A stretch of DNA of 64,000 nucleotides from Minisyncoccota bacterium (GCA_028718635.1 JAQULK010000001.1:242944-306943), one strand, 5' to 3'; counted from the first letter of the stretch, positions 23,318-41,371 are shown. The notes: generated by a model not told the origin, from the letters alone. Program-made: numbers and translations.

Positions 23318-23404
23318 GGAGAGATGGGTGAGTGGTTGAAACCAACAGTTTACTAAACTGTCGTCCCTTTAAAAGGACCGAGGGTTCGAATCCCTCTCTC
23401 TCCG
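23318..23404 (+). tRNA. class II (Ser-type architecture) tRNA with an unusual anticodon loop TTACTAA, apparent anticodon ACT
   Basis: Acceptor GGAGAGA/TCTCTCC, 3-bp D-stem GGT/ACC with loop GAGTGGTTGAA (parallel to E. coli tRNA-Ser), anticodon arm ACAGT-TTACTAA-ACTGT, long variable arm GTCC..GGAC, T-arm GAGGG-TTCGAAT-CCCTC, G73. Confidence 0.6.
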
Positions 23405-23492
23405 CAGTCAGTATTTAGTATCGGAAGACTCTGATGCTCGACACTTTCTTTAGTGTGATAACTATTGGTTTTTAATATATACTTTACTCAGT

Positions 23493-26400
23493 ATGAAGAA
23501 AGTATCACTAACCGAAAAGCTGCAAAAAAGAATTTGGAGGGACGCTAAAGATGCAGCTGGTCCTCGCTATACCAGCGATATAAATGTTGAATTGGAAATA
23601 AAAGATGTATTCGATGGTATTGGTAGGACTGAGAAGATTTTTGAGGAAATTGAAGAATTTAGAAAAAAAATAAGAAGTGCATATAAATCAATCAGTCACC
23701 TAAAAACTTCAGAATATAAAGACGACGTTATAAAAAAGAATCTCAAAAAAATTCAAGCTCTTGGAAAATTTTTCCTAGTAACCACCGAAAAATTTGGCAA
23801 GGACCAGTCTAGAATGATTGATTTAAAATCAATCATTCTAGCAACAAAAAAAATTTCTCCCTATTTTTCTCCTATTGAAAGGAGTATATGGGATTTTGAG
23901 AGAAAGGAGGATGATGAACAAAGGGAAAAAGCAAAGACTGAGAACCGACAGTACTTTGGACATAGCCAGTCGGACGAATTAAGAAAACTTAAAAGCCTTG
24001 AGCATAATCTCAGAGAATTTAGTAGAGGTATTCGAGAAATAGATTATTTTGCAAAAAGTCACAAGGCACAACTTTTAAATAATCCTTTTTTGCTCATCCT
24101 TGGTCAGGCAGGAATGGGGAAAACACATTTGGTATGTGATATAACTAAAAACCGCCTTGAAAATGAACTTCCGCCAACTGTGATTGTTTTAGGTGAAAAA
24201 CTTCTAGACATTCAAGATTCTCTTGGTGCCATATTCAGCGCCGTCTCAATAAAAGGATCTAAGAAAAAGATTTTAAATGAACTTAATGAAAGAGGTAAAA
24301 AAGCAAATCGAAGGGCTTTAATAATTGTTGACGCAATAAATGAAGCTGACAGACGAGGTTGGAAATCGGGAGTGTATAAACTTATTCACGAGGTAAAGAA
24401 TTATCATTGGGTTGGGTTAGTGATGACATGCAGAGTACCCTTCCAGTTTCTATACCTTCCAAAAAAGTTAAAAATAATAACGGAATATCATCAAGGTTTT
24501 CAAGACAACGAGTTAGAGGCCATGACTGCATTCTTTAATTTTTACGGTTTATCTTTACCTCAAGTGCCACTTCTTATATCCGAGTTTAGTAGCCCACTAT
24601 TCCTTAGTTGTTTTTGTAGAACGGCGAGAGATATTAAAGGTGGGAAAGCAAAGGTAGTAAAAGGGATTAATGACCTTGCTTTGGGTCAAGTGGGAATGAC
24701 TAAAATCTTGGAAGATTTCTATATCTCGAAAGAAGAATGGATAGTAAAGAAACACACATCAAAATTCAAAATTCTTATAAAGCAATCTTGGATTTGGCAT
24801 AAATCTGGAGATTGTCTTATAAAGAATATCGCCAAGGTAATGGCAATTAACGGACAACAGTATCTCAAAGAAAACGAAGTGCTTCAGGTTATTAAAGACC
24901 TATCTAATAATAAGTATTCATTCATAACATGCTCAAAAGTTTTAAAAATTTTAATAGAAGAAGGAGTACTAATTCGAGATGCAGCTTGGGATGATCAAAC
25001 AAAAAAATATTTTGACGTATTCAAATTCTCTTTTCATAAATTTAGTGACCATATAATTGCAAGATATCTCTTGGGGGGATTTTTTGACAGCAAAAAGATA
25101 ACAGCTAGTCTCCATGCTTCAAATTCTCTTGGTAACCTTTTTTCTTCAGAAGAAAGTATATTAAGAAACATAGGATTGATTGAAGCTCTGATGGTTGAAT
25201 TTCCAGAAAGAATAAAGAAAAATCCAAAATTAACAGAAAGTGACTTAATTGATTACATACCAGAAACACTCAAGGCTGATTCTCAAATCATGTCAGCTTT
25301 TATCGAAAGCTTATATTGGAGGAAGCCTGAGAATTTCCTAAACACTAAAGGACTAATCAAAAAGTCTATAGTTGATTATATAAATAAAACGCTTCTACGT
25401 TACGAAAACTCTTCTCGGGAATTTTTAAACCTATTTGTTGCAACAGCCACAAAACCATTCCATCCCTTTAACTCAAAAATGCTCAACAAATATTTATTGA
25501 AATTCTCGCTTACTGATAGAGATTTAATCTGGTCTGAATATGTAAGAAAACAATATGGTTCAGGCAGTATATATAAACTAATTTCTTGGATTGAAAATCA
25601 AACTCTTGAAAAAATTACGGCTGACCAAGCTGCTTCTGTAATTACAGTATTATCATGGGCGTTGGGAACAAACGTTAAATTACTGAGAAATAGAGCTACA
25701 CGGTGTTTGTATATTGTTGGCAAGATTCATCCGGAGGAATTTTTTAAATCTCTTCAAGAAATTATACACATAAACGACCCTTATATCCGAGAACGAATTC
25801 TATCCGTAGGGTATGGAATTGCAATGGCGATTGAGGACCTAGATAAAAAGCTAATTTCAAAAGTCTTATTTCCTAATGCTAAAACTATTTATGCTCTTTT
25901 TTTTAAAAAAGGAGCTAAGTTGGGTTCAACAAATGTTCTCATCAGAGACTATGTTCGAGGTATTATTGAGGTAGCGTTATATCATAATGAGAAATTACTT
26001 TCACCTGCTCAAATAAGACGTGTTAGACCACCCTATACTGACGGTGGCACCCGCAAATGGGGTCGCAACCTAGACAAGGATGAAGGCAAATATCGAGATG
26101 GTAATTCACCTTTAGGGTGGGAGTTTGAAAAAGACACTTTAAGACACCTTGTTGGTAGTCAAGCTTATGATGATAAGGACAAGAATTACATTCGTCTAAA
26201 AGAAAACATGATGTGGCGACTTTATCAGCTTGGCTATTCTCTTGAAAAATTTGGCGAAATTGATAAAGAAATTGTTCGTAATACAAGATACGATGGACCT
26301 CAAAACTATGCTGGAAAAATAGAAAGATATGGAGAAAAATATTCTCTTATCGCATATCATGAAATGCTAGGTATTAAGCTAGATAAAAAGAAGTTGGACC

Positions 26401-27392
26401 GTTGGTGGTACACAGAAGATGGGAGAAACAGTGAGTTTGAAGTAGATGCTAGTTTTCCACAAACACCGAAACGAAATAAATTATTTTCAAAAGATCTGAC
26501 CTCTGGTCCAACAGATATTAAGAAATGGATGGTTCAGAAAAATCCTCCTGATATTTCCAATTATTTAGAAATTGATAAGATTGATGGCCTTCCAGGCCCT
26601 TGGATTTTAGTTGATGGAATTATTGGGGAGAAAAATACAAATAAAAGTCGAAAAGTCACAACTTTTATTTATGGTATTCTTGTAAATGAGGTAAATGAGA
26701 AAAAAATCGAGGAATTCATGGCAAAGACTCCATTTCCAGGAAATGATAATATCCCTTCTCTACCTGAAACCAGAGAAGTTTTTGCAGGAGAGCTTGGATG
26801 GAGAGAGAAAAATACACCAGATCCAAATTTATATATCAAAATTAAACGAGGAGAAATACAAAAAAAACTTACGGAAAAAGAAAAAAGGTTCCATTCTATC
26901 CGATTCGCTTTCTTTGGAGAAAAGGAAGTTGTCCAAAAGAAACAATCACTACCAGAATTTAAAACAGAAACTATATATGAAGAGATACCAATACAGCGTC
27001 TTGCAAGATGGTTTGTATCAAAGGATTACACCTACATTAAAGATAACGATACAACCGGACTACATTTATTGAGTAAGAAAATAGTAAAAAAATATAAACT
27101 GCATTGTGCTCCAGCATCATTCAATATCTTGAACGCCAAGAGAGAAGTTGTTGCTATTCCTGTTTCTGTAGGAAATCAATATGGCACACATGAGAACCTA
27201 CTCTATGCAAGAAAAGATTTAGTTGATCTTATATTAAAAGAGAGCGGTAAAAAGATGCTTATTGTCACTTGGGGCGAAAGACAATATTGGCCAGAAAATT
27301 TAGATGACATACACCGAACTGACCATAGAAGCATAATTGAAAAACGTGAGAATATATACAAACAAAACTACAGCTATCCTTTTAAAAAGTAA
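23493..27392 (+). CDS. giant (1299 aa) P-loop NTPase, STAND/AAA-like (Avs/NACHT-like architecture), a candidate defense protein
   Basis: Walker A LILGQAGMGKTHL and Walker B RALIIVDAINEAD at about aa 195-290, with an N-terminal domain of about 190 aa and a C-terminal helical region of about 900 aa. Confidence 0.5.
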   Translation: MKKVSLTEKLQKRIWRDAKDAAGPRYTSDINVELEIKDVFDGIGRTEKIFEEIEEFRKKIRSAYKSISHLKTSEYKDDVIKKNLKKIQALGKFFLVTTEKFGKDQSRMIDLKSIILATKKISPYFSPIERSIWDFERKEDDEQREKAKTENRQYFGHSQSDELRKLKSLEHNLREFSRGIREIDYFAKSHKAQLLNNPFLLILGQAGMGKTHLVCDITKNRLENELPPTVIVLGEKLLDIQDSLGAIFSAVSIKGSKKKILNELNERGKKANRRALIIVDAINEADRRGWKSGVYKLIHEVKNYHWVGLVMTCRVPFQFLYLPKKLKIITEYHQGFQDNELEAMTAFFNFYGLSLPQVPLLISEFSSPLFLSCFCRTARDIKGGKAKVVKGINDLALGQVGMTKILEDFYISKEEWIVKKHTSKFKILIKQSWIWHKSGDCLIKNIAKVMAINGQQYLKENEVLQVIKDLSNNKYSFITCSKVLKILIEEGVLIRDAAWDDQTKKYFDVFKFSFHKFSDHIIARYLLGGFFDSKKITASLHASNSLGNLFSSEESILRNIGLIEALMVEFPERIKKNPKLTESDLIDYIPETLKADSQIMSAFIESLYWRKPENFLNTKGLIKKSIVDYINKTLLRYENSSREFLNLFVATATKPFHPFNSKMLNKYLLKFSLTDRDLIWSEYVRKQYGSGSIYKLISWIENQTLEKITADQAASVITVLSWALGTNVKLLRNRATRCLYIVGKIHPEEFFKSLQEIIHINDPYIRERILSVGYGIAMAIEDLDKKLISKVLFPNAKTIYALFFKKGAKLGSTNVLIRDYVRGIIEVALYHNEKLLSPAQIRRVRPPYTDGGTRKWGRNLDKDEGKYRDGNSPLGWEFEKDTLRHLVGSQAYDDKDKNYIRLKENMMWRLYQLGYSLEKFGEIDKEIVRNTRYDGPQNYAGKIERYGEKYSLIAYHEMLGIKLDKKKLDRWWYTEDGRNSEFEVDASFPQTPKRNKLFSKDLTSGPTDIKKWMVQKNPPDISNYLEIDKIDGLPGPWILVDGIIGEKNTNKSRKVTTFIYGILVNEVNEKKIEEFMAKTPFPGNDNIPSLPETREVFAGELGWREKNTPDPNLYIKIKRGEIQKKLTEKEKRFHSIRFAFFGEKEVVQKKQSLPEFKTETIYEEIPIQRLARWFVSKDYTYIKDNDTTGLHLLSKKIVKKYKLHCAPASFNILNAKREVVAIPVSVGNQYGTHENLLYARKDLVDLILKESGKKMLIVTWGERQYWPENLDDIHRTDHRSIIEKRENIYKQNYSYPFKK

Positions 27393-27397
27393 AAAAA

Positions 27398-28717: not shown

Positions 28718-28834
28718 ATATACCTAATGAATGACGCAAAGCCCTGTAGGAGTCCAGAGCGTCTCGGTTGGTACTGTTGGTAACTTTAAAGCTTTAGAAT
28801 CATTAAAAATAATGTTAAAATGAATTAACTATTT

Positions 28835-30142
28835 ATGGAGAACTTTAACGATAAATTTTTACTTTCTTTTGAAAAAGAATTTAATATCAATTATCCAAAA
28901 ATTAACTCTGCAACATATAAGAGTCTTGTTAATTATGCTTCTGATTTAGATTTACCAATACAAAGCTGGTATCGCTACAAGGAAGGATACTCGATTAAGC
29001 TAGTTGATCAAGTTCTTACTAAGTACAATGTAAAACAAGGCGACCTAATAGTCGACCCTTTTTGTGGTAGTGGAAGTACTCTTTTACAAGCCAAAATAAA
29101 TAGATGTAACAGCATTGGTTTTGAGATAAATCCTTTTTCTGCATTTTTAGCAAAAGTAAAGACTCAAGATTATAAAAAACAAGATATTTTAATATTTAAT
29201 GAAAATGTAATTGAACTTAAAAAAGTGACAAGTAAACAGAACGTTGATATTCCAAAACTTTCAACAATTGAACAACTTTTTGAAAAAAAAGCACTATTTT
29301 ATCTTTTAACTTTAAAAGATAAAATTAATAAAATAAAAAATAAAAAAGTTTCTAATTTACTGATGCTCGCTTGGTTGGGTATTCTTGAAGAAGCATCAAA
29401 TTATAAAAAAGCTGGTAATGGTTTAAAGTTCCGTAAAACTATTAAAAAAACACTTCGAGATCAGGAGTATGTAAGAAAAATATTCTTTAAGGCAATCGAT
29501 AATATAAAAAATGATTTAGATTTTGCGGTTAAGATATCTAACAAGGTAGATACAGAGGTCATTGAAGACTCTTGTTTTAATTTAAATAAATACACAAAAA
29601 AAAATTCTATAAAAGGTGTTATTTTTTCACCCCCTTATGCTAATTGTTTTGACTATACAGAAATATATAAAGTAGAACTTTGGATGGGTTCTTTTGTAAA
29701 AGAATACTCTGATTTAAAAGTTTTACGAAAGAAAGGTATTAGATCTCATTTAAATGGATATGAAATAGAATCTAAGCTTGCAGTAAAAAGCGTTCCAGAG
29801 TTAGGAGCATTAGTGAAGGAACTTTCTTTAAAAAAACTTTGGGATAAAAGAATTCCAAAGATGATAGAAGCATACTTTAATGATATGTTTCGTTCAATGG
29901 CTGAAATATATAAAGGATTAAAAAAGAATGGGTTTTGTGTAATTATTGTTAGTAATTCTGCATATGGAGGAATAGTTATCCCAACTGATCTATTATTAGC
30001 AAAATTCGCTAAGCATTTAGGTTTTAAGGTTTCTTCAATTGATGTTGCTCGTAACATTATTACTAGTTCACAACAATACAAAGAAACCGAAAAATACCGT
30101 GGTTACTTAAGAGAAAGTATCATTTACTTGGAAAAAAAATAG
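28835..30142 (+). CDS. DNA methyltransferase (alpha-class N6-A/N4-C), motif I DPFCGSGST, motif IV SPPY
   Basis: LIVDPFCGSGSTLLQA at about aa 70 and VIFSPPYANCFDY at about aa 265. Confidence 0.7.
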   Translation: MENFNDKFLLSFEKEFNINYPKINSATYKSLVNYASDLDLPIQSWYRYKEGYSIKLVDQVLTKYNVKQGDLIVDPFCGSGSTLLQAKINRCNSIGFEINPFSAFLAKVKTQDYKKQDILIFNENVIELKKVTSKQNVDIPKLSTIEQLFEKKALFYLLTLKDKINKIKNKKVSNLLMLAWLGILEEASNYKKAGNGLKFRKTIKKTLRDQEYVRKIFFKAIDNIKNDLDFAVKISNKVDTEVIEDSCFNLNKYTKKNSIKGVIFSPPYANCFDYTEIYKVELWMGSFVKEYSDLKVLRKKGIRSHLNGYEIESKLAVKSVPELGALVKELSLKKLWDKRIPKMIEAYFNDMFRSMAEIYKGLKKNGFCVIIVSNSAYGGIVIPTDLLLAKFAKHLGFKVSSIDVARNIITSSQQYKETEKYRGYLRESIIYLEKK

Positions 30143-30144
30143 AA

Positions 30145-31440
30145 ATGGAAAAAGATGAAAAAGAGAAAATTATAGAAGTAACTAATATCCCAGCAAAACC
30201 AAAAGACGGGGATGTTTTTTTAATAAAAGCATTTGGTATTTCAAGTTTTACTCATGGCATTTTTAAGTACCCATGTAAATTCATACCACATATCCCACGT
30301 TGGTTTATAGAAAATTATGCTTCAACTGATACAAAAAAATATGGTGTAATAGATCCATTTATGGGTTCAGGAACAACTCTCGTAGAAGCTTCTTTGTTAG
30401 GTTATCCTAGTTATGGTATTGATATTGATCCATTAAGTAAATTATTGAGTAATGTTAAAACCACACCATTTTATGATAGAGAATTTTCTATTATTGATCA
30501 ATTTATCTCTGATTATAAAATAACAATAAAAAAGCCTGATCAATTAAAAAATAAGATTGAGGAGTTTGTTCCTGATAGGGATTTAATTAATTACTGGTTT
30601 TCTGAGTCTACAATTAAAGATCTCGCACTTATTCGTTTTCTAATTCAAAAAAACTTTACTCAATTTAAGAATAAAAAGGTAAAAAACTTTCTTGAAATTG
30701 TATTGGCTTCTATAATACGAAAAGTTTCTAAGGCGGATAATCAATCACCTAAACCGTATATTTCAACTAAAATAAAAAAAGATCACGTTATTGTGTTTGA
30801 TGAATTTTATAAAAACCTAATTAAGTATATAGATTCAATTAAGCAGTTTTCAGATGAATCAAAAGCAGAGGTAAAAATAATTGGATTTGACGCAAGAAGT
30901 GTTGATAAAAAATCTCTCTATTTTAATAAGGTTAGTTTAGCAATGACATCACCACCTTATATAAATGCCTTCGATTATGTTCGTTCCTTAAAGCTAGAAA
31001 ACTTTTGGCTTGATGGTTTTAGTAAACAAAAGTTAGATGAACTTTATGATCATCAGATTGGCTCAGAAAAAGTAAAAACTTTAAAAGAAGTTCCTGCATA
31101 TGGAATTAAAGAACTTGATTCTGTATTGGCTCAAATATATTTATTAGACAAAAAAAGAGCATGGATTACTTTTAAGTATTTTCAGGCAATGACAGAAAAT
31201 CTAAAATCTATACATGATTCTCTTCAAAAAGGAGGATATTATTGCATAGTTGTAGGAAACAGTAAAATAAGAGGATTTGATGTTGATACAGCTAGTATTT
31301 TGTTAAAAATAGCAAAAGATGTAGGATATAAAAAGAAGCTTGTCTTTTCTTATATAATAAGAAATAGATACCTTCGTATCCCAAGATCTGGTCGAGGTGG
31401 ATTTATCCCTAAAGACTATGTATTAGTTTTTGAAAAATAA
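30145..31440 (+). CDS. second DNA methyltransferase (alpha-class), motif I DPFMGSGTT, motif IV SPPY
   Basis: IDPFMGSGTTLVEA and AMTSPPYINAFDY. It starts 3 nt after the first methyltransferase gene. Confidence 0.7.
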   Translation: MEKDEKEKIIEVTNIPAKPKDGDVFLIKAFGISSFTHGIFKYPCKFIPHIPRWFIENYASTDTKKYGVIDPFMGSGTTLVEASLLGYPSYGIDIDPLSKLLSNVKTTPFYDREFSIIDQFISDYKITIKKPDQLKNKIEEFVPDRDLINYWFSESTIKDLALIRFLIQKNFTQFKNKKVKNFLEIVLASIIRKVSKADNQSPKPYISTKIKKDHVIVFDEFYKNLIKYIDSIKQFSDESKAEVKIIGFDARSVDKKSLYFNKVSLAMTSPPYINAFDYVRSLKLENFWLDGFSKQKLDELYDHQIGSEKVKTLKEVPAYGIKELDSVLAQIYLLDKKRAWITFKYFQAMTENLKSIHDSLQKGGYYCIVVGNSKIRGFDVDTASILLKIAKDVGYKKKLVFSYIIRNRYLRIPRSGRGGFIPKDYVLVFEK

Positions 31441-33145
31441 TTTTATGACACGAACAAGGAGTTTAGAAATTTGGCATATACCAAAGAGACAAAATATCCA
31501 TCAAATTATTGGTTCTGTAGAAATCTTATCTCAAGATAGTTTTAATGGAAAATCTTGGACTTCAATGAAACAAGAAGCTTTTAATACTCTTCTTGGGAAA
31601 CATGGCTTAACTAAAAGAGGTAGACCTTTATCTCCATCAGCAAGAAGAACATTAGAGGCCCTAATTAAATATTTAGGTTTTATTGTTATCGATAATTCCA
31701 CAACACCTTCAACAATACATGTAACAAATGCAGGTTTTGAGCTAATAAAAAAACACGGTTCCGTTTTGGGTTTAGGAAAAAATTTAACTATTGTTTCTGG
31801 TAATGGAAAAGAAATTTTGGAATCTAAGGTTGTGGAACACCAAATGAATAAGTTGCAAATTACGAATCCTGTAATAAAGGAGGATTGTGTAAATATTCTT
31901 CTTTTCCCATTTCGTGTTACCTTAAAACTTTTATTAGAACTCGAATCCCTTTCGAAGGAAGAATTAGGATACATTGTTTTCTCAATGAAAAAGGAAGATG
32001 AGTATAAATTAATTATTGAAAAAATTAAAACTTTTAGACAACTACCAGAGAAACGAAGAAAAGCAGAAATTGATGCTTTTAAAAATACTGAGGTTGGTAA
32101 TCTTACTTTAGTACAAGCACCTACCGCAGGTTACTATATTGGTCTTTGTGTTGCTACAGGTTTATGTGAAAGAAAATCTAGTGATTTATGTATAAAAGTA
32201 GATAAAAAAGAAGAAATACTTTTAATCCTTGAAAAATACAAAAATATTAGACCATTTGATTTTGGAGATAATTTAAGACTTTGGATTGAATATTTTGGTG
32301 ATTTCAAAAGAATACGGCCACCATTACTTGTTAATGTTCACATTAACTTACCTGAAAAATGCTATGTTCGTGTTTATAACCACGAAAATAAAGAAACTTC
32401 TTCTGGTGTTGTTTCGGGTTCTTTATCCTTTGGCGCCGCTCTTTTTGAAAATGAAGAGTATAAATTTGATTTTTTTAGTTTTAGTGATGCAACACTTTTT
32501 TACTCTGAAAAGAAAAAAATTAAATCAGATACTATTAAATTTTTACTCCCCACGGTGAAAAAAGCTATACAAGGAGATGATACACAAGAAATATTAGAGA
32601 AGAAAATTTTAGAGCTTATAGCTAGTAAAGATTATGATTCTTTATATGGTCATCATATATCTATAGTTAGTTCAATTACCGGTAAGAATAATTTTAATAC
32701 TGCCCAACTTAGGGGTGGCCGACTAGAATATTTATTTTTTAAATTACTTCAAAAGTATAAAGACTTAGGTAAAATCGATGATGTTATATGGAATGGTCGG
32801 GTTGATGAATTTGGAATTATGTATCCAGCATTGGGTGGTAAAGAAGGATATCCGGATGTATATTTTTTTATAAAACAAAATGTTTATGTTCTAGAACTTA
32901 CAACAATAAGGGCTAATGCAATGCAGTGGTCTGCGGAAGGAGGTTCCGTGCACGATCACATAATGAACCTTCAAAAGAAAATCGGTACTCAGTATTTTAC
33001 TCATGGTATTTTTTCTGCACCAACTATTGCACCAAGAATTGAGGGAATGTATAAACACATCGCTACAAAAGAAGATACTCCTCATCACACAATACCAATT
33101 GAAGCATTGATAAAGGAACTTAAAAAGTTGCCGAATATTTTTTAA
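31430..33145 (+). CDS. hypothetical 571-aa protein, a candidate restriction endonuclease partner of the two methyltransferases
   Basis: It overlaps the second methyltransferase gene by 11 nt (operon). The C-terminal GYPDVYFF...VLELTTIR is weakly PD-ExK-like. No firm motif. Confidence 0.3.
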   Translation: MKNNFMTRTRSLEIWHIPKRQNIHQIIGSVEILSQDSFNGKSWTSMKQEAFNTLLGKHGLTKRGRPLSPSARRTLEALIKYLGFIVIDNSTTPSTIHVTNAGFELIKKHGSVLGLGKNLTIVSGNGKEILESKVVEHQMNKLQITNPVIKEDCVNILLFPFRVTLKLLLELESLSKEELGYIVFSMKKEDEYKLIIEKIKTFRQLPEKRRKAEIDAFKNTEVGNLTLVQAPTAGYYIGLCVATGLCERKSSDLCIKVDKKEEILLILEKYKNIRPFDFGDNLRLWIEYFGDFKRIRPPLLVNVHINLPEKCYVRVYNHENKETSSGVVSGSLSFGAALFENEEYKFDFFSFSDATLFYSEKKKIKSDTIKFLLPTVKKAIQGDDTQEILEKKILELIASKDYDSLYGHHISIVSSITGKNNFNTAQLRGGRLEYLFFKLLQKYKDLGKIDDVIWNGRVDEFGIMYPALGGKEGYPDVYFFIKQNVYVLELTTIRANAMQWSAEGGSVHDHIMNLQKKIGTQYFTHGIFSAPTIAPRIEGMYKHIATKEDTPHHTIPIEALIKELKKLPNIF

Positions 33146-33403: not shown

Positions 33404-33585
33404 TTGACCTAACCCCTAAAATCTTTAGGATATGGTCTTATGAAAACTCGCTACAAGATAAAGAACCCTTCGTCAGGGTACTTGTAGCGAGTCATAATCG
33501 GAAACGGTTATGGGTGGTCGAAAGACCATCGCCCGGCGGAGGGCTTTTTGTCTCTCTAGGCAACTAATAAAACTCGCTACAAAAA
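33404..33585 (+). promoter_or_regulatory. promoter-like site (-35 TTGACC, -10 TAGGAT) plus a structured leader with three copies of AACTCGCTACAAG (two direct, one inverted) and a terminator-like GCCCGGCGGAGGGC-T5
   Basis: Repeats at 33442-33455, 33481-33494 (inverted) and 33572-33585 (abutting the ATG at 33586). A GGTGGTC-GAAA-GACCATC tetraloop hairpin sits at 33513-33530. Confidence 0.4.
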
Positions 33586-34242
33586 ATGAAAACACAACAG
33601 AGTGTAATTCAAGATTTATTTCTTGAATATGGGCTACTCAATTCGGATCTCACAATCAACGAATTAAAAATTAAACCAATCTTGGCAAAATTAAAGAAGG
33701 GTCTAAAACAGTATTTAAGTATTCAGCGAAGCGTTAATATTACGGATACAAGCAAAGATATCTTGTTCCAAGAAATGTTTAGTAATTTTTATGGTTTTGA
33801 TCGAAATAGAGATAGCGCTTGGAAAAAAGAATATTTTAATTTGTTTGAAACATTAAAAATAAAAGACAGAGATTTCAAGAAAACACTTGAAGGAGTGTAT
33901 ACAAAAACAAATAAAATAGAGCCGTCATTTTCCAGTAAGCTTTTAGCAACTCTTAATCCTGATTTACCTGTAATAGATAAGTGGATACTAAAAAATCTTT
34001 CTCTTGAAAAGGAATCTCAAAAAATAAGCAGACTGAAAGATGTATCAGAGCGACTTAATGAAACTGAAAATTTGTACAAAAAATTGTCAGAAATGTTTGA
34101 AGAATTTATAACCACAAAAGGTGCAGATAATTTATTTGATCGCTTTGTTTCTGAATATCCTTTCACTAATACAACACAAAATTCCAGCCTAACGAAAGCT
34201 AAGATGCTTGATCTCATACTTTGGCAATTACGAAGGAAATAA
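33586..34242 (+). CDS. hypothetical protein
   Basis: 218-aa ORF with no motif. Confidence 0.3.
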   Translation: MKTQQSVIQDLFLEYGLLNSDLTINELKIKPILAKLKKGLKQYLSIQRSVNITDTSKDILFQEMFSNFYGFDRNRDSAWKKEYFNLFETLKIKDRDFKKTLEGVYTKTNKIEPSFSSKLLATLNPDLPVIDKWILKNLSLEKESQKISRLKDVSERLNETENLYKKLSEMFEEFITTKGADNLFDRFVSEYPFTNTTQNSSLTKAKMLDLILWQLRRK

Positions 34243-36094: not shown

Positions 36095-36128
36095 ATTTTT
36101 TTTAAGTTAAATTTAATAATGAGACAAC

Positions 36129-36160
36129 AAAAAAACAGCTTGGTAGCTGCCTTTTCTTTT
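36129..36160. terminator. bidirectional terminator-like hairpin (A-run, CAGCT-TGGT-AGCTG, T-run)
   Basis: Read from the sequence in a 440-bp divergent intergenic region. Confidence 0.35.
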
Positions 36161-36535
36161 CAATAAAATATTAAATTTATTGATGAAGAATTGGCAACTT
36201 TTTGAAACACTAAACAGATTGTTTAGTCACAAGATTGCCAACTCCACACCAATTCCCTAATTTACGACTTCGGCCATTCGTTTACCTGAATGATAAGGTT
36301 ATGCATTTAAATCGACCATTAAAACATAAGATACTTTTTGCCTCTTTAGCTTTGTAAAAAAGAGAATAAATATTTGTTGGGACAATGCACAACTCTTACT
36401 CTTTAAAGATAAAGAAAAGATTATTGCACATTGGTCTGCGTTATAAACTCAAAGAACTATTTTTAGTATATCAAGCGTAAATAGCTAGGCAAGGAAAAAA
36501 GTGGAAAACTTTTATAAATTTTCTATAATAAATAC

Positions 36536-37795
36536 ATGGAAAAGCATCTTAAAGACAAGCAATATTATATTGACCTTTACGACCGCCACACCGTTAAACG
36601 CTGTCGAGACCTCGTACGCACTCATTCAGAACCAATAAAAAATCCTCCACTGATTGAGGGCAAAAAACCAACACAGAAAATGGTTGATGCCATTTCAAAA
36701 ATGGCTCTTGAGTGGAGTATGATGTTTCAAACAGGCGAAAGATATTTGAACAAAGAAGAGACAATCCGAAAATGGATGGATGCTGATAAAAGAAAAGACG
36801 AATTGTATGAAACAGCACAAGCACCAGAAAATATACGCTGTCTAACCTGTCGAAATCTTCTAAAACCAACATTTAAAAATCTATGGTCTGAAAATGGTAA
36901 AGAAGACAGAATGTTTTTTATGTATGATTGTCCAAATCAATGTTTACCAAGAAGAGCATTTTTCTCAGACGGCGAAGAATGGAGACCTAAGCCAAACCCT
37001 TGCCCAAACTGCAAAGCAAAACTCGATTGTAAAGATGCAAGTACTAAAGAAAAATTTATTACTGAATACACCTGCATAAATTCAGAATGCGGATATGTTA
37101 AAAAAAGTGAAATAGAAAGAAACGCAATAAAAGAAGAAGAGTTTGATGAGAAATTTACCGAAGATAGAGATCGTTTTTGTTTAACTGAGGAAGCAGGTAA
37201 AAAATGGCAAGAAGAAAAATGGCGACTAGAACAGCTTGGTAAATTTATGGATGAATGGAAAGAGGAAGAAAAACAAAGAGCAGAAAAATTAAAGGCAAAT
37301 CCGAAAGGATTTCATCTTGAAGGTGCTGGTTATCGCTGTGCTATATGCGGTGATGGCACTCCCGAAGGTGATAATTGGTATGACGAATATGGCATAAAAT
37401 GTTTGATCTGTCAGAAAGCAATCGATGAAGGAGAAATACCTGCATCTGTTGCAAAAGACAAAGATAGTTGGTATTCAAAATACGATATTGAAAGCAGGTT
37501 CGGTGTCAAAGGTCCAACGTTTTATAAGTGGGTAAGGAAAGGGATTATTAAACCAAGAATTATTACTCGTTACGGTAAGGGCGAACATTGTCATATTTTT
37601 ATGGTTAAAGACAATAAAGATATCTTGCCACCCAAGAAGCTGACTGAATCACAAATGGGTAGAGAGACAAAAGATGGAAAAGAATTAAATTCAATGCATC
37701 CTTGGTATCATTTTACTCATTTAGTTGAAGAGGTGAAAAAGTATAAGATTATGGATTATATTAAACTTGTTCCTATGGAAGAAAATAAAAAATAG
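36536..37795 (+). CDS. hypothetical protein with multiple CxxC zinc-ribbon pairs
   Basis: CLTCRN, CPNQC, CPNCKAKLDC, CINSECGY, CAICGD, CLICQK. Confidence 0.35.
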   Translation: MEKHLKDKQYYIDLYDRHTVKRCRDLVRTHSEPIKNPPLIEGKKPTQKMVDAISKMALEWSMMFQTGERYLNKEETIRKWMDADKRKDELYETAQAPENIRCLTCRNLLKPTFKNLWSENGKEDRMFFMYDCPNQCLPRRAFFSDGEEWRPKPNPCPNCKAKLDCKDASTKEKFITEYTCINSECGYVKKSEIERNAIKEEEFDEKFTEDRDRFCLTEEAGKKWQEEKWRLEQLGKFMDEWKEEEKQRAEKLKANPKGFHLEGAGYRCAICGDGTPEGDNWYDEYGIKCLICQKAIDEGEIPASVAKDKDSWYSKYDIESRFGVKGPTFYKWVRKGIIKPRIITRYGKGEHCHIFMVKDNKDILPPKKLTESQMGRETKDGKELNSMHPWYHFTHLVEEVKKYKIMDYIKLVPMEENKK

Positions 37796-37802
37796 ATGTA
37801 CG

Positions 37803-38195
37803 TTATTTTTCCCATTCCTTAACATCAGGATGAAAATCTACTTGATATTCTGGGATACCTAAGGAAATACCATACTCCTTTGCCTTATTATATTCTTCAA
37901 TACTATTTCTATTTATATAAAATACTTTATCTCTGAAAATAATATAGTGATGCGTTTTGTTTCTAAAATCAGCATACCAATTATGCTCTTTATCTAAAGA
38001 TACACTAATCTCTTTAGCTATGGCTTCAGCTTCATTTTCTGGAATTAAAACAGTGTGCAACGTCCATTGTTTAACCCAAGGAGTTTTATGTTTTTCTGCA
38101 ACAACACTGACTTTGGTTTCCAAAATCTGAACTTTCTTAAGCACTTCTTTGTTTTCTAAACTTTCTTCAATTATTACTCCACGATAATTATCCAT
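37803..38195 (-). CDS. hypothetical protein
   Basis: 130-aa ORF. Confidence 0.3.
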   Translation of the reverse strand: MDNYRGVIIEESLENKEVLKKVQILETKVSVVAEKHKTPWVKQWTLHTVLIPENEAEAIAKEISVSLDKEHNWYADFRNKTHHYIIFRDKVFYINRNSIEEYNKAKEYGISLGIPEYQVDFHPDVKEWEK

Positions 38196-38199
38196 AATT

Positions 38200-38673
38200 T
38201 TATTTATGCTTTTCTTTATACTCTTTATAAATTTCTATTATTTTTGGAACAGCAAAGGAACAATTTTCTGGAAGTTTTTCGGGGTCATACCAACCTGAAT
38301 CAATTATTTCAAAATTATCAATTTTTACAAAAGAAGAATCTGTATGTAAATAAAAACATTTTACGATATTTTTCTTAAAATAACGTTCTGACGAATATTC
38401 TCCCATTTCAATTATATCTTGAGCTTTTATTCCTACTTCTTCTTCTAACTCTCTTAATCCTGCTTCTTTAAAAGATTCATATTTATCTACTCCACCCCCT
38501 GAGAATGTCCACCCCTTATGGGCATAACCAATTCTGACCATAAGAATTTTATTATTATTTTCAACTACTACTTTTACTCCGAGAGACTTTGGTCTAAAGA
38601 TGAAACAATAAAATTTATAAACTGGATTTCTAAAAAAATAATAAAGTTTTTTAATTTTTTGTTTAAAATTCAT
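38200..38673 (-). CDS. NUDIX hydrolase
   Basis: Nudix box GGGVDKYESFKEAGLRELEEEVGI. Confidence 0.7.
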   Translation of the reverse strand: MNFKQKIKKLYYFFRNPVYKFYCFIFRPKSLGVKVVVENNNKILMVRIGYAHKGWTFSGGGVDKYESFKEAGLRELEEEVGIKAQDIIEMGEYSSERYFKKNIVKCFYLHTDSSFVKIDNFEIIDSGWYDPEKLPENCSFAVPKIIEIYKEYKEKHK

Positions 38674-38857
38674 ATTATCTTATTTTGATATCATCTTTAC
38701 CTCTCCAATTTATCTCAAAAGAGATTGAATGCTTGTTTGGAATTTTCCATTTAGAAAATCTAAAACAAAAAAATTGAAATTTATTTTCAGCAATCTTTCC
38801 AAATCCAAACCTATTCAAAGTAAGTTCTATATCTATAACCATTTTTTTACATTAAAT

Positions 38858-39643
38858 TTATAATTTACCTAACTGGACAGCTTCAACAATTTCATTATGC
38901 AAAATACCATTTGAAACAATACATCCAAGTCCGTCTTGATCGTATCTTCTTTCTTCTCCATTTAGATCCGTAACCTTTCCTCCAGCTTCTTCTGTAATAA
39001 TTTTTAATGAGGCAACATCATGAGCATCTTTTTTATAAAATACAGCTCCGGTATACTTTCCATTAGCAACTTGAACACCACCATAAATAAAAGAAGGGAG
39101 CTTCATGTATTTGCAACCCTTTTCAATTATTAATTTAATGAAGGGCAATGTTGAAAAACCAACCGTTTTTCCTTCAGCACCGATATTTAAATATGTATTT
39201 TTTAAAGTAGTCTCTTTTGAGACAAATATTTTTTGACCATTTCTATATGCTCCGCCCTCTTTATATGCCCAATATGTTATTTTCATTATTGGATCATATA
39301 TTAAACCTAAAATAGGCTGACCATTTGATTGATCAACTAAAGCAATAGAAAAAACGAATATGGGTAAACCAACCGAAAAAGCCATGGTTCCATCTATTGG
39401 GTCACAGACCCAAATGTATTTAGAACCTCCTTTTCTGTCACTTTTTTCTTCACCATAAATACTATGTTCTGGGTAAGTTTCATTAATTCTTTTTATAACT
39501 AAATCGTTTATTTCTGTATCCGCTAAAGTTAATGGAGTGTTGTCTCCCTTCCAAGTGTTTTCTACTTCAAAACTAAAATATTTCAAAGCTATTTCTTCAG
39601 CTTCTTTGGCTAGTTTCTTTGCAAATTCTAAATATTGTTCCAT
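38858..39643 (-). CDS. inositol monophosphatase family protein
   Basis: WVCDPIDGT motif and the overall IMPase fold. Confidence 0.7.
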   Translation of the reverse strand: MEQYLEFAKKLAKEAEEIALKYFSFEVENTWKGDNTPLTLADTEINDLVIKRINETYPEHSIYGEEKSDRKGGSKYIWVCDPIDGTMAFSVGLPIFVFSIALVDQSNGQPILGLIYDPIMKITYWAYKEGGAYRNGQKIFVSKETTLKNTYLNIGAEGKTVGFSTLPFIKLIIEKGCKYMKLPSFIYGGVQVANGKYTGAVFYKKDAHDVASLKIITEEAGGKVTDLNGEERRYDQDGLGCIVSNGILHNEIVEAVQLGKL

Positions 39644-39648
39644 GGATA

Positions 39649-40137
39649 TTAATTTATTATTTTTTTTAATTCTTTTAAATCTAGTTCGGTTCTAGTATCA
39701 ATAGAATTTCCATCTATTTGACCTGTTCCATTAATCCATATTTTTTCTGGAACAAATTTATAAACTCTCCTAGGATATGAAGTCAAAAACATAGCCACAT
39801 CTTTCATTTTGTGCTTACTTCTCATATAGACACATTTTATACCAACTAAAATCTCAATAGGATTAGTTAATTCATAAGATTTACCTTGAAAGTATACTCC
39901 AATACCAGTACTGGCTGGTACGGTTGAATCATAGATTGTAGTAAAAGTATTTGGGTTATTTCTTATATTTATTGAATGTTGATTTTCTTTCCAAGATAAC
40001 CAGTAGAAATTAAGTTCTTTATCATAGGCACAATACACTGGGCTATTCCAAGGCAAACCCTCTGGGGTAATGGTAGCTGAATTGAGATATTCAATCTTTT
40101 CTATTATTTCTTTTGATTTTTTTAAAAGATTTTCCAT
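39649..40137 (-). CDS. hypothetical protein
   Basis: 162-aa ORF. Confidence 0.3.
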   Translation of the reverse strand: MENLLKKSKEIIEKIEYLNSATITPEGLPWNSPVYCAYDKELNFYWLSWKENQHSINIRNNPNTFTTIYDSTVPASTGIGVYFQGKSYELTNPIEILVGIKCVYMRSKHKMKDVAMFLTSYPRRVYKFVPEKIWINGTGQIDGNSIDTRTELDLKELKKIIN

Positions 40138-40379
40138 TATTTATTTATTAATTCTAATTTCTTATTTTTTCTTAATTTTTTAATTCTAGCTTCTTCTTTT
40201 GAGGCGGTAGATCTGTTTTTGAATTTCTTTGAATAAACAATTTTTACCGGTCTTCTAGAAACAGTATACCTTGCTCCCAGCTTTGTATTATTGTGTTCAA
40301 CAGTTCTTCTTTCTAAATTTGTGGTAATTCCAGTATATAGAGTTTTGTCAGCACATTCAAGAATATAAAGATAATACAT
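40137..40379 (-). CDS. GIY-YIG domain nuclease (UPF0213-like)
   Basis: YYLYILECADKTLYTGITTNLERRTVEHN. Confidence 0.7.
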   Translation of the reverse strand: MYYLYILECADKTLYTGITTNLERRTVEHNNTKLGARYTVSRRPVKIVYSKKFKNRSTASKEEARIKKLRKNKKLELINK

Positions 40380-40392
40380 ATATTCTTTGAAG

Positions 40393-40956
40393 TTATAGAA
40401 TCTTTCTAATTTTTTCTAATAAATCAGGGAAAGTTAAATATCCAGCTCTTGCATTAAAATGTCCAGCGTTTGGAATAAAGGAAAGCTCAACGCCTAACTC
40501 TTTAGCTAATTGTTCTCCATTACCTAAAGACACATAAGGATCATTGTCTGAATGATAAACGGTGAAATGTTTTGAGTTATTTTTTATGGTATTCCAATCA
40601 AAATCAAAACCACTAAAACTACTATCTCGATCATAATTTAGAATCGGTTTTACTCCTATTGGGGTTCCAGTTAGAAAAACTGCCCTAATTGGATACTTGA
40701 GTTTTTCTAAAACTCTCAAAGCAAAAACACCACCTAAACTATGTCCAATAATAATGGTATTTTCGTCAATATCCTGTTCATAGTTTTTTAGCACTTCAAA
40801 CCATTCAAAGATTTTGGCTGGCACTACAGCTGGTGTTGGAAATTGAGGCACAATAACCTTGCAACCTTTTTCTTCCAGTTTTTCTTTTAACCAAGGAAAC
40901 CAATTTTCCTGCGGATGCCCCTCTGTTCCATGAAAGATGAATACGTTATTAATCAT
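40393..40956 (-). CDS. alpha/beta hydrolase (serine esterase-like)
   Basis: GHSLGG nucleophile elbow. Confidence 0.55.
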   Translation of the reverse strand: MINNVFIFHGTEGHPQENWFPWLKEKLEEKGCKVIVPQFPTPAVVPAKIFEWFEVLKNYEQDIDENTIIIGHSLGGVFALRVLEKLKYPIRAVFLTGTPIGVKPILNYDRDSSFSGFDFDWNTIKNNSKHFTVYHSDNDPYVSLGNGEQLAKELGVELSFIPNAGHFNARAGYLTFPDLLEKIRKIL

Positions 40957-41371
40957 GCCCTGATTGTATCAAAAATTCAAAAAAAGAGACATCTAACGGA
41001 TATCGCATAAAAGTGTCTCATTTGTCTCATTTTGACGTAAAATAAGGTTATATTGTCGTTTAAAAGACACACTCCTGTTTTTCTTTTAGCGACTCGAGTG
41101 CCTCAGCAACACCCGGAAAAAAGTGCTAGAATACCTTTACATGGTCTCATTAGCACAGTACTTAACTCTTAGACACCGCAGTCAGTATTTATTATCGGTA
41201 GACGTTGAGGCCTTATTTTCCCGCACTTTTTTGCGCTGATTTTTCTAAAAAACCATGACCCATCCGGGATTCGAAATAGGAAGTAAATTAACTATATTTT
41301 AAATATACAATGTAAAAATGTATTCAGAACTAAAAAAATAAAAAAATTATTTATGTTATACTGCAATAGTA

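Follow-up and report, generated by a model that had tools for sequence, protein, structure and literature searches.

Very probably, the segment 23406-41175 of the window, the stretch of 64,000 nucleotides that was analysed here, is a genomic island that integrated into the chromosome of a member of the Patescibacteria (Pacebacteria) and that owes its mobility to the large serine recombinase (LSR) encoded at 27398-28717. The island brings defence cargo, predicted as an Avs2-like NTPase and a type IIS restriction-modification (R-M) system, together with metabolic genes (Table 1). A preliminary description had proposed an accessory island beside a tRNA gene with a signature of integration; this is now strengthened by the junctions found in 49 of 53 loci, the attP-like far end, the island-free relatives and the GC content.

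Table 1. Features of the island and of its borders in the window (window coordinates).
Feature	Position	Strand	Details
Trace of a decayed second element at the neighbouring tRNA-Ser(GCU)	22996..23157		
LSR C-terminal pseudogene	22996-23124	+	inverted repeat I1; tblastn
P' motif of a different class	23131-23154	-	common to L011, L095, L098
tRNA-Ser, anticodon ACU	23318..23405	+	ARAGORN 23318-23405; Rfam 23318-23404, 59 bits
Predicted attL	23402..23437	+	left repeat copy; core CCGC (23402-23405) and element-side half-site P' (AGTCAGTATTTAGTATCGGAAGAC...)
Predicted Avs2-like antiviral STAND NTPase, 1299 aa	23493..27392	+	cargo between attL and LSR, convergent with LSR
LSR, 439 aa	27398..28717	-	Resolvase, Recombinase, Zn_ribbon_recom domains (Pfam)
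Predicted type IIS R-M cargo	28835..33145	+	Pfam, PADLOC; GC 0.291
Two N6/N4 methyltransferases	28835-30142, 30145-31440	+	PADLOC MTase_II ~1e-93 to 1e-94
AlwI-family endonuclease	31430-33145	+	PF09491 RE_AlwI 2.8e-9; PADLOC REase_II 1e-104
LOOT RNA (Rfam RF03000)	33406..33530	+	80.1 bits, threshold 46.4; model 1-121 of 121
218-aa ORF	33586..34242	+	just downstream of LOOT
AlpA/Xis-type HTH protein, 173 aa	34247-34768	-	Pfam, PHROGs
ParB-N and DNA methyltransferase fusion	34769-36094	-	Pfam, PHROGs
Multi-zinc-ribbon protein with small Xis/BldC-like HTH, 419 aa	36536-37795	+	
130-aa ORF	37803-38195	-	backbone-associated
Metabolic-type cargo: NUDIX, inositol monophosphatase, PNPOx-like, GIY-YIG, serine hydrolase	38200..40956	-	Pfam
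Far-end module	41013..41211	+	about 20 such units among related loci
Tandem box GTGTCTCATTTGTCTCATT	41013-41031		far-end module
GCGACTCGAGTGCC box	41089-41102		far-end module
Extended -10-like TGCTAGAAT	41124-41132		far-end module
P arm, mimic of tRNA T arm and acceptor strand	41133-41175		far-end module
Core CCGC	41176-41179		far-end module
Second P' half-site	41180-41211		far-end module
Scar region between att unit and host sigma promoter	41212..41350		holds T-arm-like scrap
T-arm-like scrap GGGATTCGAAAT	41266-41277		in scar region

All the domains of an LSR were present in the recombinase, with Pfam matches to PF00239 (1e-18), PF07508 (1e-13) and PF13408 (5e-8), and a YARKST motif at residues 25-30 contained the putative nucleophile Ser29. 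The protein matched the PHROG integrase family phrog_95 (E 3e-64), and its best named NCBIfam relatives were CcrB and XisF, both under the cut-off. Homologues 75-90% identical were found as at least 120 cluster representatives from many Patescibacteria classes. The loci compared comprised 80 from one genome scan and additional ones from look-ups. Past the 3' end of the LSR, 53 loci had a tRNA-Ser gene of any anticodon on the opposite strand, the two 3' ends facing at a distance of 111 bp to 8.7 kb; another tRNA came first in only 3 loci. A TATCG-type motif occurred at most 30 nt from the tRNA-Ser end in 49 of the 53 LSR-proximal loci. As a control, the motif was absent at 8 of 12 tRNA-Ser genes located away from any LSR, including the unoccupied tRNA-Ser(GCU) of L064, a locus whose LSR is 91% identical, the tRNA-Ser(ACU) of L081 and six others. 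These comparisons point to a site-specific target shared by the LSR family, the 3' end of tRNA-Ser genes.

The 28-mer repeat given in the preliminary description was recovered on the + strand at 23402-23429 and 41176-41203 with 26 of 28 positions alike; its degenerate form matched the + strand of the window exactly twice and 100 shuffles not at all, and the ungapped similarity reached 36 nt at 86%. The overlap reported for the left copy and the tRNA end also stood, amounting to 3 nt with the Rfam boundary or 4 nt with that of ARAGORN, CCG(C). With its T arm and its acceptor strand ending in CCGC, the 3' end of this tRNA-Ser(ACU) would provide the integration site with its bacterial half-site, B. 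The first 24 nt of attL were identical to the sequence following tRNA-Ser(TGA) in L003 and L004, and the conserved motif, which begins at the tRNA end, reads CCGC, then ..TTTAGTATCGG..GAC, with CCGAGTGCC after it in most cases. From this conservation, the repeat appears to consist of the core CCGC and the element-side half-site P' of the LSR attachment site; it is neither a target duplication nor a promoter. The P' copies of L044, like those of L046, fall in two different sequence classes, so the act of integration did not itself produce the repeat. The earlier concern about a long repeat beside a serine recombinase thus has another answer: the repeat is not a product of integration and represents two copies of the element-side half-site, one of the resident element and the other most likely of an earlier occupant of the tRNA.

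The right repeat copy corresponded to the CCGC core and the first 24 nt of the second P' half-site, and was embedded in a conserved, attP-like module of ~200 nt with the order P arm-CCGC-P'. In the hybrid-junction check, attL agreed with expectation, being the tRNA end, CCGC and the conserved P'; the right junction had the conserved P arm and CCGC, but then the second P' in the place of unrelated host sequence. The same far-end unit was found in L014, L015, L034, L037, L038, L040, L066 and L068, and also in L044, L046, L051 (three copies), L086, L088 and L090 (two copies). The units of related loci are oriented as attL and placed 5' of the LSR; that of L081 is on the other strand, beyond the tRNA pair. 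About half of them read P-CCGC-P' and half P-CCGC followed by unrelated sequence. The unit was recognised through a 36-nt ungapped scan of the related loci, in which only the window, L046 and L044 had direct copies above background; a 12-mer scan of L003-L005 detected no exact second junction copies. No further att units turned up within the island or on its right side, and the sigma side could therefore not be supported as an older element. A metagenome scan with the P-arm pattern returned 6 loci only, 3 of which share the promoter-like part alone.

We propose that the circular form of the element would carry attP, composed of the mimic arm P, CCGC and P', and that the LSR would pair it with attB, the tRNA-Ser 3' end in CCGC. 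Strand exchange at a dinucleotide within or beside CCGC would leave the tRNA intact and would yield attL (tRNA-CCGC-P') and a right junction made of P-CCGC and the former tRNA-adjacent sequence, the probable position of the crossover being placed solely by where conservation switches. In the genome of the window, a P' half-site from an earlier element would already have stood after the tRNA, in which case the right junction becomes P-CCGC-P' and a direct repeat of 28-36 nt results. Most likely, this tRNA had been occupied before, and the island would have gone in next to the scar of that former element. Canonical LSRs, the phage integrases phiC31, Bxb1, TP901-1 and A118 among them, are not known to recombine attP with attL, so that serial insertion by way of an old P' needs a relaxed site choice or another history.

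Beside the neighbouring tRNA-Ser(GCU), an LSR pseudogene was detected by tblastn, run over all loci with the conserved C-terminal motif EKRELMGCFKS, its best match being the second LSR of L011. This decayed LSR gene end indicates that the locus has been used repeatedly. An inversion by the LSR, with its gene end and the remnant (I1) as endpoints, seems less likely, since a decayed second element explains the remnant better.

GC content had been suggested earlier as a check on the island, and composition did shift at the repeat copies, with 0.324 between them compared with 0.375 in the left flank and 0.373 in the right flank. Across the right copy, GC stepped from 0.299 inside, the value of the metabolic block, to 0.382 outside, that of the sigma operon. 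The genes to the right of the repeat, described before as core, are indeed kept by relatives as host core: the sigma-MacAB operon was present without the island in L093, L094 and L095, and colinearity with L093 and L095 started at 41351-41352. For this particular island, neither an empty tRNA-Ser(ACU)-sigma junction nor an excised circle nor a polymorphism between strains was seen; the closest "empty" relatives have a different tRNA beside sigma. In L093 and L094, a tRNA-Gln lies 25 nt upstream of the sigma operon, and in L095 a tRNA-Ser and scars are found upstream. Look-ups of identical sigma and DUF378 proteins gave no empty site: the contigs retrieved were all short, came from the same organism and had the same junctions. 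One LSR was found on 24 contigs, with an identical context in 24 of 24 and no sign of recent movement. No circular contig or terminal direct repeats occurred among the retrieved contigs, and no recombination directionality factor was identified for the element. The viral collection gave a single relevant contig, L105 (IMG/VR), with an LSR 50% identical and a different layout, and no match to the attL pattern.

A recurrent backbone made of the LSR, LOOT RNA, the HTH protein, the ParB-methyltransferase and the zinc-ribbon protein was found with order and orientation kept. LOOT RNA was present in at least 19 LSR loci, always on the strand opposite to the LSR; in five loci (L002, L006, L015, L039, L040), some 150-200 nt separate it from the start of the LSR. 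It is thus a core part of the element, transcribed divergently from the recombinase, which gives a context to this orphan RNA; our literature search returned no reported function for LOOT RNA. The position downstream of LOOT is variable, with different ORFs among loci, and the 218-aa ORF located there in the window had no match in family libraries and no homologue in the other loci. The HTH protein and the ParB-methyltransferase occurred in 18 and 17 other LSR loci, respectively, in the same relative orientation, and their best matches in other loci were 36-44% and 65-76% identical. The 419-aa zinc-ribbon protein was found in 4 LSR loci of the genome scan and in L091; it had 342 homologues, those with a named source being from Patescibacteria, and no Pfam domain. 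Its AF2 model (pLDDT 82.8) gave no whole-protein fold match in the PDB (best E 0.29), small BldC/Xis-like HTH and zinc-ribbon pieces alone being matched, and a sequence search against the PDB found nothing. LOOT, the Xis/AlpA-like HTH protein, the ParB-methyltransferase and the zinc-ribbon/HTH protein presumably control recombination directionality, establishment or transfer.

Concerning the cargo, the gene content was as previously listed, except that the "571-aa unknown" proved to be an AlwI-family type II restriction endonuclease and that the PNPOx-like gene (39649-40137), the 218-aa and 130-aa ORFs and LOOT RNA had been omitted. The earlier assignment of the 1299-aa protein as a STAND-like NTPase holds and can be narrowed to Avs2-like. 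It matched PADLOC Avs2 with an E value of 1e-184 over residues 4-849 only, and NCBIfam NF041813 with 584 bits, under the cut-off of 1000, over profile positions 3-778 of 1317; on these profiles, it is a putative Avs2-like protein with a divergent C-terminal region of 450 aa. R-M systems of the AlwI-family type IIS have two methyltransferases, one for each strand of the asymmetric site. The AlwI-type endonuclease with two methyltransferases directly upstream is accordingly a predicted type IIS R-M system. None of the five genes of the metabolic block recurred inside another LSR element compared, and GIY-YIG matches in other loci were located only past the tRNA, on the host side.

These five non-recurring genes between the backbone and the far-end unit suggest that the island may be composite. 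In the explicit form of this idea, the LSR element would extend from the tRNA to ~38.2 kb, from the Avs2-like gene to the 130-aa ORF, and the NUDIX-to-hydrolase block with the far-end unit would be what is left of an older element without LSR, the junction between the two having been deleted. Tandem units are known in L051, L090 and L098, the far-end unit stands 0.8-1.7 kb past the zinc-ribbon or ParB-methyltransferase genes in L091, L051 and L044 compared with 3.3 kb here, and the block, absent from all other LSR loci compared, has its GC of 0.299 against 0.34-0.37 for the backbone. Two elements nevertheless seem unlikely: within 23.44-41.0 kb there was no other P arm and no other P' motif, degenerate ones included, and the R-M cargo is equally low in GC, so that composition fails to split them. 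We regard as quite improbable that the repeat is an identity core of attP and the native attB, with the right copy as original host sequence and no earlier element, as in islands moved by tyrosine integrases and in the direct repeats around SCCmec. Such a core would fit the agreement of the two copies at 26 of 28 positions and the direct repeats that flank the CcrAB-moved SCC elements, CcrB being the best named profile match of the LSR. However, the unoccupied tRNA-Ser genes (GCU of L064, ACU of L081 and the six others) have no such sequence after CCGC, unrelated sequence follows about half of the far-end units, and the P' copies of L044 and L046 belong to different classes.

Hardly credible is the fallback of the preliminary description, a shared promoter motif, taken here as a promoter or regulatory element of the Avs2-like gene and sigma that is unrelated to recombination. 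Both copies do lie upstream of + strand genes and the extended -10 box TGCTAGAAT is found 44 nt upstream of the right copy, but the left copy has no promoter-like box and sigma has its own conserved TGTTATACT box (41354-41362) within the block colinear with motif-free relatives; the motif follows LSR-proximal tRNA-Ser 3' ends in 49 loci whatever the next gene. An identity as prophage or as phage satellite, with packaging by a helper phage via a small-terminase-like protein, would account for the phage-typical ParB-methyltransferase gene, the filing of the distant relative L105 in IMG/VR and the weak match of the 173-aa HTH protein to PHROG small terminase subunits (E 4e-6 to 2e-4). We hold it to be very improbable, as the terminase matches span the HTH only and genes for capsid, portal, tail, large terminase and replication are all absent from 23.4-41.2 kb.

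An island mobilised by its LSR, the preferred reading, can be set beside known systems. In Staphylococcus, SCC elements, moved by the LSRs CcrAB or CcrC, are flanked by direct repeats and form tandem or composite arrays, with recombinase-less cassettes, at the same site. The window island resembles SCCmec/SCC in the insertion of cargo by an LSR at the 3' end of one conserved housekeeping gene that is not inactivated, and in flanking direct repeats that include the sequence of the integration site. It differs in its LSR, which scored 114 bits for CcrB (cut-off 900), 53 for CcrA (700) and 45 for CcrC (900), in its one recombinase gene where SCC has a CcrA/CcrB pair, and in its junction at tRNA-Ser(ACU) (23318-23405) instead of the 3' end of rlmH (orfX). 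It also differs in its Patescibacteria host, its backbone with LOOT RNA, ParB-methyltransferase and zinc-ribbon protein, and its attP that mimics the tRNA T arm. With the large serine integrases of phages (phiC31, Bxb1, TP901-1, A118), it shares the Resolvase, Recombinase and zinc-ribbon architecture, proposed attP and attB that are distinct but for a short common core and, at attL, a hybrid junction; in contrast, the island has no phage genes, the target is a tRNA gene end, and many right junctions are attP-like (P-core-P'), implying insertion beside an old attL. Islands targeted to tRNA genes and moved by tyrosine integrases have been catalogued in Islander (PMC4383910). Like them, the window island lies beside a tRNA that is reused, has a direct repeat at its borders and carries accessory or defence cargo; unlike them, it contains no tyrosine integrase, and its repeat holds 4 nt of the tRNA where theirs holds a displaced tRNA 3' fragment.

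Little has been described so far of the mobile elements of the candidate phyla radiation, and in such tiny genomes an island of 18 kb represents ~2.6% of the chromosome. Our literature search returned no description of this element family and no report linking serine recombinases with Patescibacteria. A recombinase and site pair is now defined for at least 120 protein clusters (75-90% identity) of many classes, and its predictable target, the tRNA-Ser 3' end, should make islands and their defence cargo delimitable in thousands of metagenome-assembled genomes. Serine integrases already serve as genome-engineering tools; an attP that mimics a tRNA arm, with a universal tRNA end as attB, gives candidate tools that could be useful.

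An integron consists of the tyrosine integrase IntI, attI and an array of attC cassettes. We raise, as a tentative idea that we do not favour, that in Patescibacteria the LSR family captures modules much as an integron does: entry would be at the 3' ends of tRNA-Ser genes, each module would end in an attP-like unit with an outward promoter, and repeated capture would build arrays of one- or few-gene cassettes beside the backbone. On this reading, the window would be a two-module state, the resident island and the scar of its predecessor, and a second class of recombinase would be building integron-like arrays. The likeness lies in the arrays of one-gene modules of L051 and L098, parted by site-like units near a recombinase platform. 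The differences are the serine recombinase, the double-strand attP-like sites with their own promoter-like box and, in the window, a single att unit downstream of the backbone and no tyrosine recombinase in the island. In L051, three units lie at intervals of ~1 kb; a single ORF comes after each of the first two, and the contig stops at the third. In L098, the zinc-ribbon gene is followed immediately by at least 8 repeated units spread over 7.5 kb, and L090 has two units. Separately, L037 and L038, which could be free forms or internal array members, showed a P'-core-P unit at the place expected for the tRNA.

The degenerate 28-mer of the direct repeat matched the plus strand of the window at two places, 23402-23429 (left copy) and 41176-41203 (right copy), exactly where the preliminary description had put it, and gave no match in 100 shuffles of the sequence. 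The copies differ by two single bases and show ungapped similarity over 36 nt at 86% (family D4). The end of the tRNA-Ser (ACU), at 23404 or 23405, places the start of the left copy in the final 3-4 nt of this tRNA, CCG(C), in agreement with the 3-nt overlap claimed. The anticodon of this tRNA lies in the loop uuACUaa. We found also tRNA-Ser(ACU) in nine other Patescibacteria loci (L011, L012, L013, L027, L039, L045, L051, L064 and L081), with covarying anticodon stems and often a divergently adjoining tRNA-Ser(GCU). A34 is unusual in bacterial tRNAs other than tRNA-Arg; that of tRNA-Ser(ACU), if deaminated to inosine, would read AGA as well.

Table. Features of the tRNA-Ser pair, the island and its far end (window positions).
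Feature	Position	Strand	Remarks
tRNA-Ser (GCU)	23158-23247		divergent from tRNA-Ser(ACU)
tRNA-Ser (ACU)	23318-23405		ARAGORN; 23318-23404 in Rfam
Avs2-like STAND NTPase	23493-27392		PADLOC E 1e-184; NCBIfam Avs2 584 bits, under cut-off
Large serine recombinase (LSR)	27398-28717	-	complete
Type IIS R-M system	28835-33145		two methyltransferases and AlwI-family endonuclease
LOOT RNA	33406-33530		full length; Rfam RF03000
AlpA/Xis-type HTH gene and ParB-methyltransferase fusion	34247-36094	-	
Zinc-ribbon protein	36536-37795		
NUDIX, IMPase, PNPOx-like, GIY-YIG and serine hydrolase genes	38200-40956	-	
Tandem box GTGTCTCATTTGTCTCATT	41013-41031		part of conserved far-end module
GCGACTCGAGTGCC box	41089-41102		far-end module
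Extended -10-like TGCTAGAAT	41124-41132		far-end module
ACCTTTACATGGTCTCA			far-end module, after -10-like box
Hairpin-equivalent stretch	41133-41179		short hairpin in other loci, loop (G)GTACTTAAC ~13 nt before CCGC

A search with the 439-aa LSR gave at least 120 representatives of protein clusters with identities of 75-90%; among the matches listed with a named source, most were from Nomurabacteria, Pacebacteria, Parcubacteria or the Patescibacteria group, and one was labelled Bacteroidetes. The LSR locus set consisted of 80 loci from one genome scan, together with several look-ups (L numbers designate loci compared with the window); L044, L046, L051 and L098 were covered with flanks of 10 kb. 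Contigs L001 and L092, from the Logan run SRR22315506, are exact matches to the window. The genes around the LSR vary by locus and include RHS toxin, type I R-M, helicases, peptidase/HTH pairs and copper resistance. The first tRNA past the LSR 3′ end was an opposite-strand tRNA-Ser in 53 loci, with anticodon GGA, GCU, UGA, CGA or ACU and at a distance of 111 bp to 8.7 kb, and a different tRNA in 3 loci. Read in the tRNA orientation, a conserved sequence begins at the tRNA end: CCGC(CA), a few bases, (G)ACAATTTAGTATCGG, then GAC..CCGAGTGCC. The first 24 nt in the window (AGTCAGTATTTAGTATCGGAAGAC) are identical to the sequence after tRNA-Ser(UGA) in L003/L004. This TATCG-type motif was present at 49 of the 53 LSR-proximal tRNA-Ser junctions and absent at 8 of 12 control tRNA-Ser genes, which belong to the same loci but lie away from the LSR. 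The motif-free controls include the tRNA-Ser(ACU) of L081 and the unoccupied tRNA-Ser(GCU) of L064, a locus with the same tRNA pair and an LSR 91% identical to that of the window. Since the motif is absent at most of these tRNA-Ser genes without an adjacent LSR, it is element DNA and not a property of the tRNA-Ser flank. Judged by its sequence, the left copy is the putative attL, with a host half-site (tRNA T arm and acceptor strand), the core CCGC and the element half-site P′.

The motif of the right copy is the last piece of a conserved far-end module (Table), in which an element-side P arm precedes CCGC. In its layout this arm corresponds to the T arm and acceptor strand of a tRNA, with GGTTCGAATCC-N-CTCCGC against GGTACTTAAC-N-(C)CCGC. 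A search profile built from five such units retrieved about 20 far-end units in related loci, nearly all attL-oriented and 5′ of the LSR. In about half of them CCGC is followed by P′ (window, L044, L051 (twice), L090a, L086, L038, L037 and L066), and in about half by unrelated, mostly A/T-rich sequence (L046a, L088, L014, L034, L081, L040, L015, L090b and L068). P-CCGC-P′ is the form expected of the attP of the element, and P-CCGC followed by other sequence the form expected of attR. Conservation on the tRNA side and in the mimic arm meets only in CCGC, which suggests that strand exchange would take place in or next to it. Inside the island (23406-41175) and to its right, the search of the window found neither another P arm nor another P′ motif. 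Very probably, the repeat represents two copies of the core-plus-P′ half-site of the LSR, at the att sites of an island; the LSR element family to which this island belongs targets tRNA-Ser and is widespread in Patescibacteria.

The conserved tandem box of the far-end module (41013-41031), GTGTCTCAT-TTGTCTCAT with the variants GTCGCATTTGTCGCAT and GTGCCAAATTGTGCCAA, precedes the promoter-like box by about 95 nt; it takes the same position in L051, L081, L086 and L087-L091, and looks like a candidate binding site for a dimeric regulator. The LSR motif was also seen after a tRNA-Trp ending in CCCGC (L035, 13659-13768) and, in L014, L030 and L032, after degenerate tRNA-like 3′ ends at which no tRNA could be called; what the LSR targets would seem to be a T arm with a ...CCGC end, and not the serine identity of the tRNA in itself. 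In L105 (IMGVR_UViG_3300014208_000734, 10662-12154), a contig filed as viral, the LSR is 50% identical and a P-arm unit stands 125 nt past its 3′ end on the same strand, a layout opposite to that of the window's family.

The composition and the host context agree with these boundaries. The GC content is 0.324 inside the island compared to 0.375 (1-23157) and 0.373 (41204-48544) outside, with a step at the right copy from 0.299 (NUDIX to hydrolase) to 0.382 (sigma to permease). The sigma protein of the window is identical to a Pacebacteria one, and relatives with an 87-90% identical sigma keep the operon sigma-135 aa-162 aa-HlyD-ABC-permease and have no island. Sigma is preceded in L093 and L094 by a tRNA-Gln, at a distance of 25 nt, and then by ordinary host genes; in L095 its immediate upstream neighbours are a tRNA-Ser(GCU), fragments of tRNA-Ser 3′ ends and a P′ motif of class C. 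Relatives and window are colinear from 41351-41352 onwards, where sigma has a TGTTATACT box of its own, so that the right boundary falls within 41176-41350; 41212-41350 is a scar region with a T-arm-like scrap. The preliminary description had proposed a tRNA-adjacent accessory island, to be checked by composition and by an empty site in relatives. The island interpretation and the GC shift were borne out, given the motif at LSR-proximal tRNA-Ser genes and the sigma operon without island in L093-L095, but no uninterrupted tRNA-Ser(ACU)-sigma junction was found among the genomes examined, and the exact empty site is therefore predicted rather than observed.

The presence of P′ at both ends has to be accounted for, as serine recombinases, to our knowledge, make no target duplication. 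Together with the motif-free ends of unoccupied tRNA-Ser genes, this makes the simplest history one in which the P′ of an earlier element was already present. This earlier P′ would have stood at tRNA-Ser(ACU) when the present island inserted, giving the order tRNA-CCGC-P′(new) ... P-CCGC-P′(old), with a predicted circle junction (attP) of CAGTACTTAACTCTTAGACACCGCAGTCAGTATTTAGTATCGGAAGACTCTGATGCTCGACAC and a predicted island-free junction of GGTTCGAATCCCTCTCTCTCCGCAGTCAGTATTTATTATCGGTAGACGTTGAGGCCTTATTTTCC. A duplication made by integration itself is impossible in L044 and L046, where the P′ of attL and that of the far end are of different sequence classes (24-28 of 36 positions identical). In L090, a P-core-P′ unit is followed 0.5 kb on by a P-core-other unit, L051 has a series of three units (below), and displaced tRNA-Ser 3′ fragments occur after several junctions (L046, L088 and L095); these findings, too, speak for an earlier occupant.

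The tRNA-Ser locus of the window has itself been used more than once. The remnant of a decayed second LSR gene, within 22996-23157, matches in its last ~25 codons the family C-terminal motif EKRELMGCFKS, with the second LSR of L011 as best match; this remnant and the intact LSR gene, at its 3′ end, form the two arms of an inverted repeat of 39 nt, and a P′ of a different class (CAACAGATAGCACGAGATGCTTAG) lies at 23131-23154, by the 3′ end of tRNA-Ser(GCU). The weak point of serial insertion is its mechanism, since recombination between attP and attL is not known for canonical phage LSRs. The sequence after CCGC shows little conservation at unoccupied sites and true attR junctions, which suggests that the LSR may read mainly the tRNA half, and an occupied tRNA would then be a usable target. 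On balance we lean slightly towards serial insertion as the origin of the right copy.

In L064 (14901-19110), the homologues of the genes at window 48547-51787 are found 22 nt after the tRNA-Ser(GCU) 3′ end; in the window (48545-51787) these genes are on the opposite side of the tRNA pair, at a distance of 25 kb. One breakpoint of this rearrangement is exactly at the tRNA-Ser(GCU) end, the site of the LSR remnant.

The nearest profiles of the LSR were CcrB, XisF, CcrA and CcrC, and membership of these families was rejected because all scores were far below the cut-offs. SCC elements are the closest in behaviour, having in common with the island an LSR, insertion at a conserved gene 3′ end, flanking direct repeats and tandem composites. 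The tRNA islands of tyrosine integrases differ in enzyme class, and the repeat here has only 4 nt of tRNA. The island contains no phage structural genes; the small-terminase matches of the 173-aa HTH protein were weak and confined to the HTH. The literature searched, an incomplete sample whose silence is absence of evidence only, did not link serine recombinases to Patescibacteria, reported no function for LOOT RNA and held no description of the element family.

The gene content proposed earlier was mostly correct, including the STAND NTPase, now identified as Avs2-like; the "571-aa unknown", however, is the AlwI-family endonuclease of the type IIS R-M system, and the PNPOx-like gene and the LOOT RNA had not been listed. 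Besides the LSR, the ParB-methyltransferase recurs in 17 and the HTH gene in 18 other LSR loci, with the relative orientation kept (best matches 65-76% and 36-44% identical, respectively). The 419-aa zinc-ribbon protein recurs at five loci; of its 342 homologues, those with a named source are from Patescibacteria. It has no Pfam domain, and the matches of its AF2 model (pLDDT 82.8) were limited to zinc-ribbon pieces and a BldC/Xis-like HTH, no fold being matched over the whole protein. At least 19 LSR loci contain LOOT RNA, which always lies 5′ of the LSR and on the strand opposite to it, about 150-200 nt from the LSR start in L002, L006, L015, L039 and L040, with the same layout in L098; the R-M system separates the two in the window, and the ORF downstream of LOOT varies among loci. 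The LOOT loci are L002, L005, L006, L010, L014, L015, L024, L025, L031, L034, L037, L039, L040, L043, L051, L054, L061, L064, L085, L098-L100 and L105. Variable cargo comprises the Avs2-like gene, the five metabolic genes and the R-M system, none of which recurred in the other LSR elements compared. The gene just past the LSR 3′ end is convergent and abuts the LSR in the four loci examined in detail (window, L002, L003/L004 and L005), and its reading direction is that of the tRNA and of the far-end promoter-like box. This shared direction implies that, in a circular form, the box would read across attP and its transcript would enter the cargo antisense to the LSR. The P0082 loci (L106-L113) have in common an LSR variant that was identical across 24 contigs, from many samples, with copper-resistance genes between the LSR and the expected tRNA (multicopper oxidase, Cu-ATPase, CsoR-like repressor and ZIP transporter); several of these contigs terminate within this region.

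Repeated units were found in two further loci. L051 (1-2100, locus coordinates) has three far-end units ~1 kb apart, the third cut by the contig end; an ORF follows each of the first two (polyprenyl synthetase-like and nucleotidyltransferase-like), and each ORF stop overlaps the next unit. In L098 (11321-18900), at least eight att-like units of related kinds separate single small genes over 7.5 kb directly after the zinc-ribbon gene, whose end is the exact start of the first unit; in one unit a T-arm mimic (GGTTCCAATTCCAG) is fused to a class-C P′. In L091, 0.8 kb lie between the zinc-ribbon gene and the far-end unit. The window holds only the resident island and one scar. On a tentative reading of these arrays, a serine recombinase would have captured small cassettes one after another; we consider this possible rather than probable.

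Elsewhere in the window, a tRNA-Ile with the anticodon UAU was found at 12083-12157; such a tRNA is rare in bacteria, where AUA is usually read by a lysidine-modified CAU tRNA. A full-length tmRNA gene is present on the minus strand at 9133-9532 (Rfam, 124 bits).
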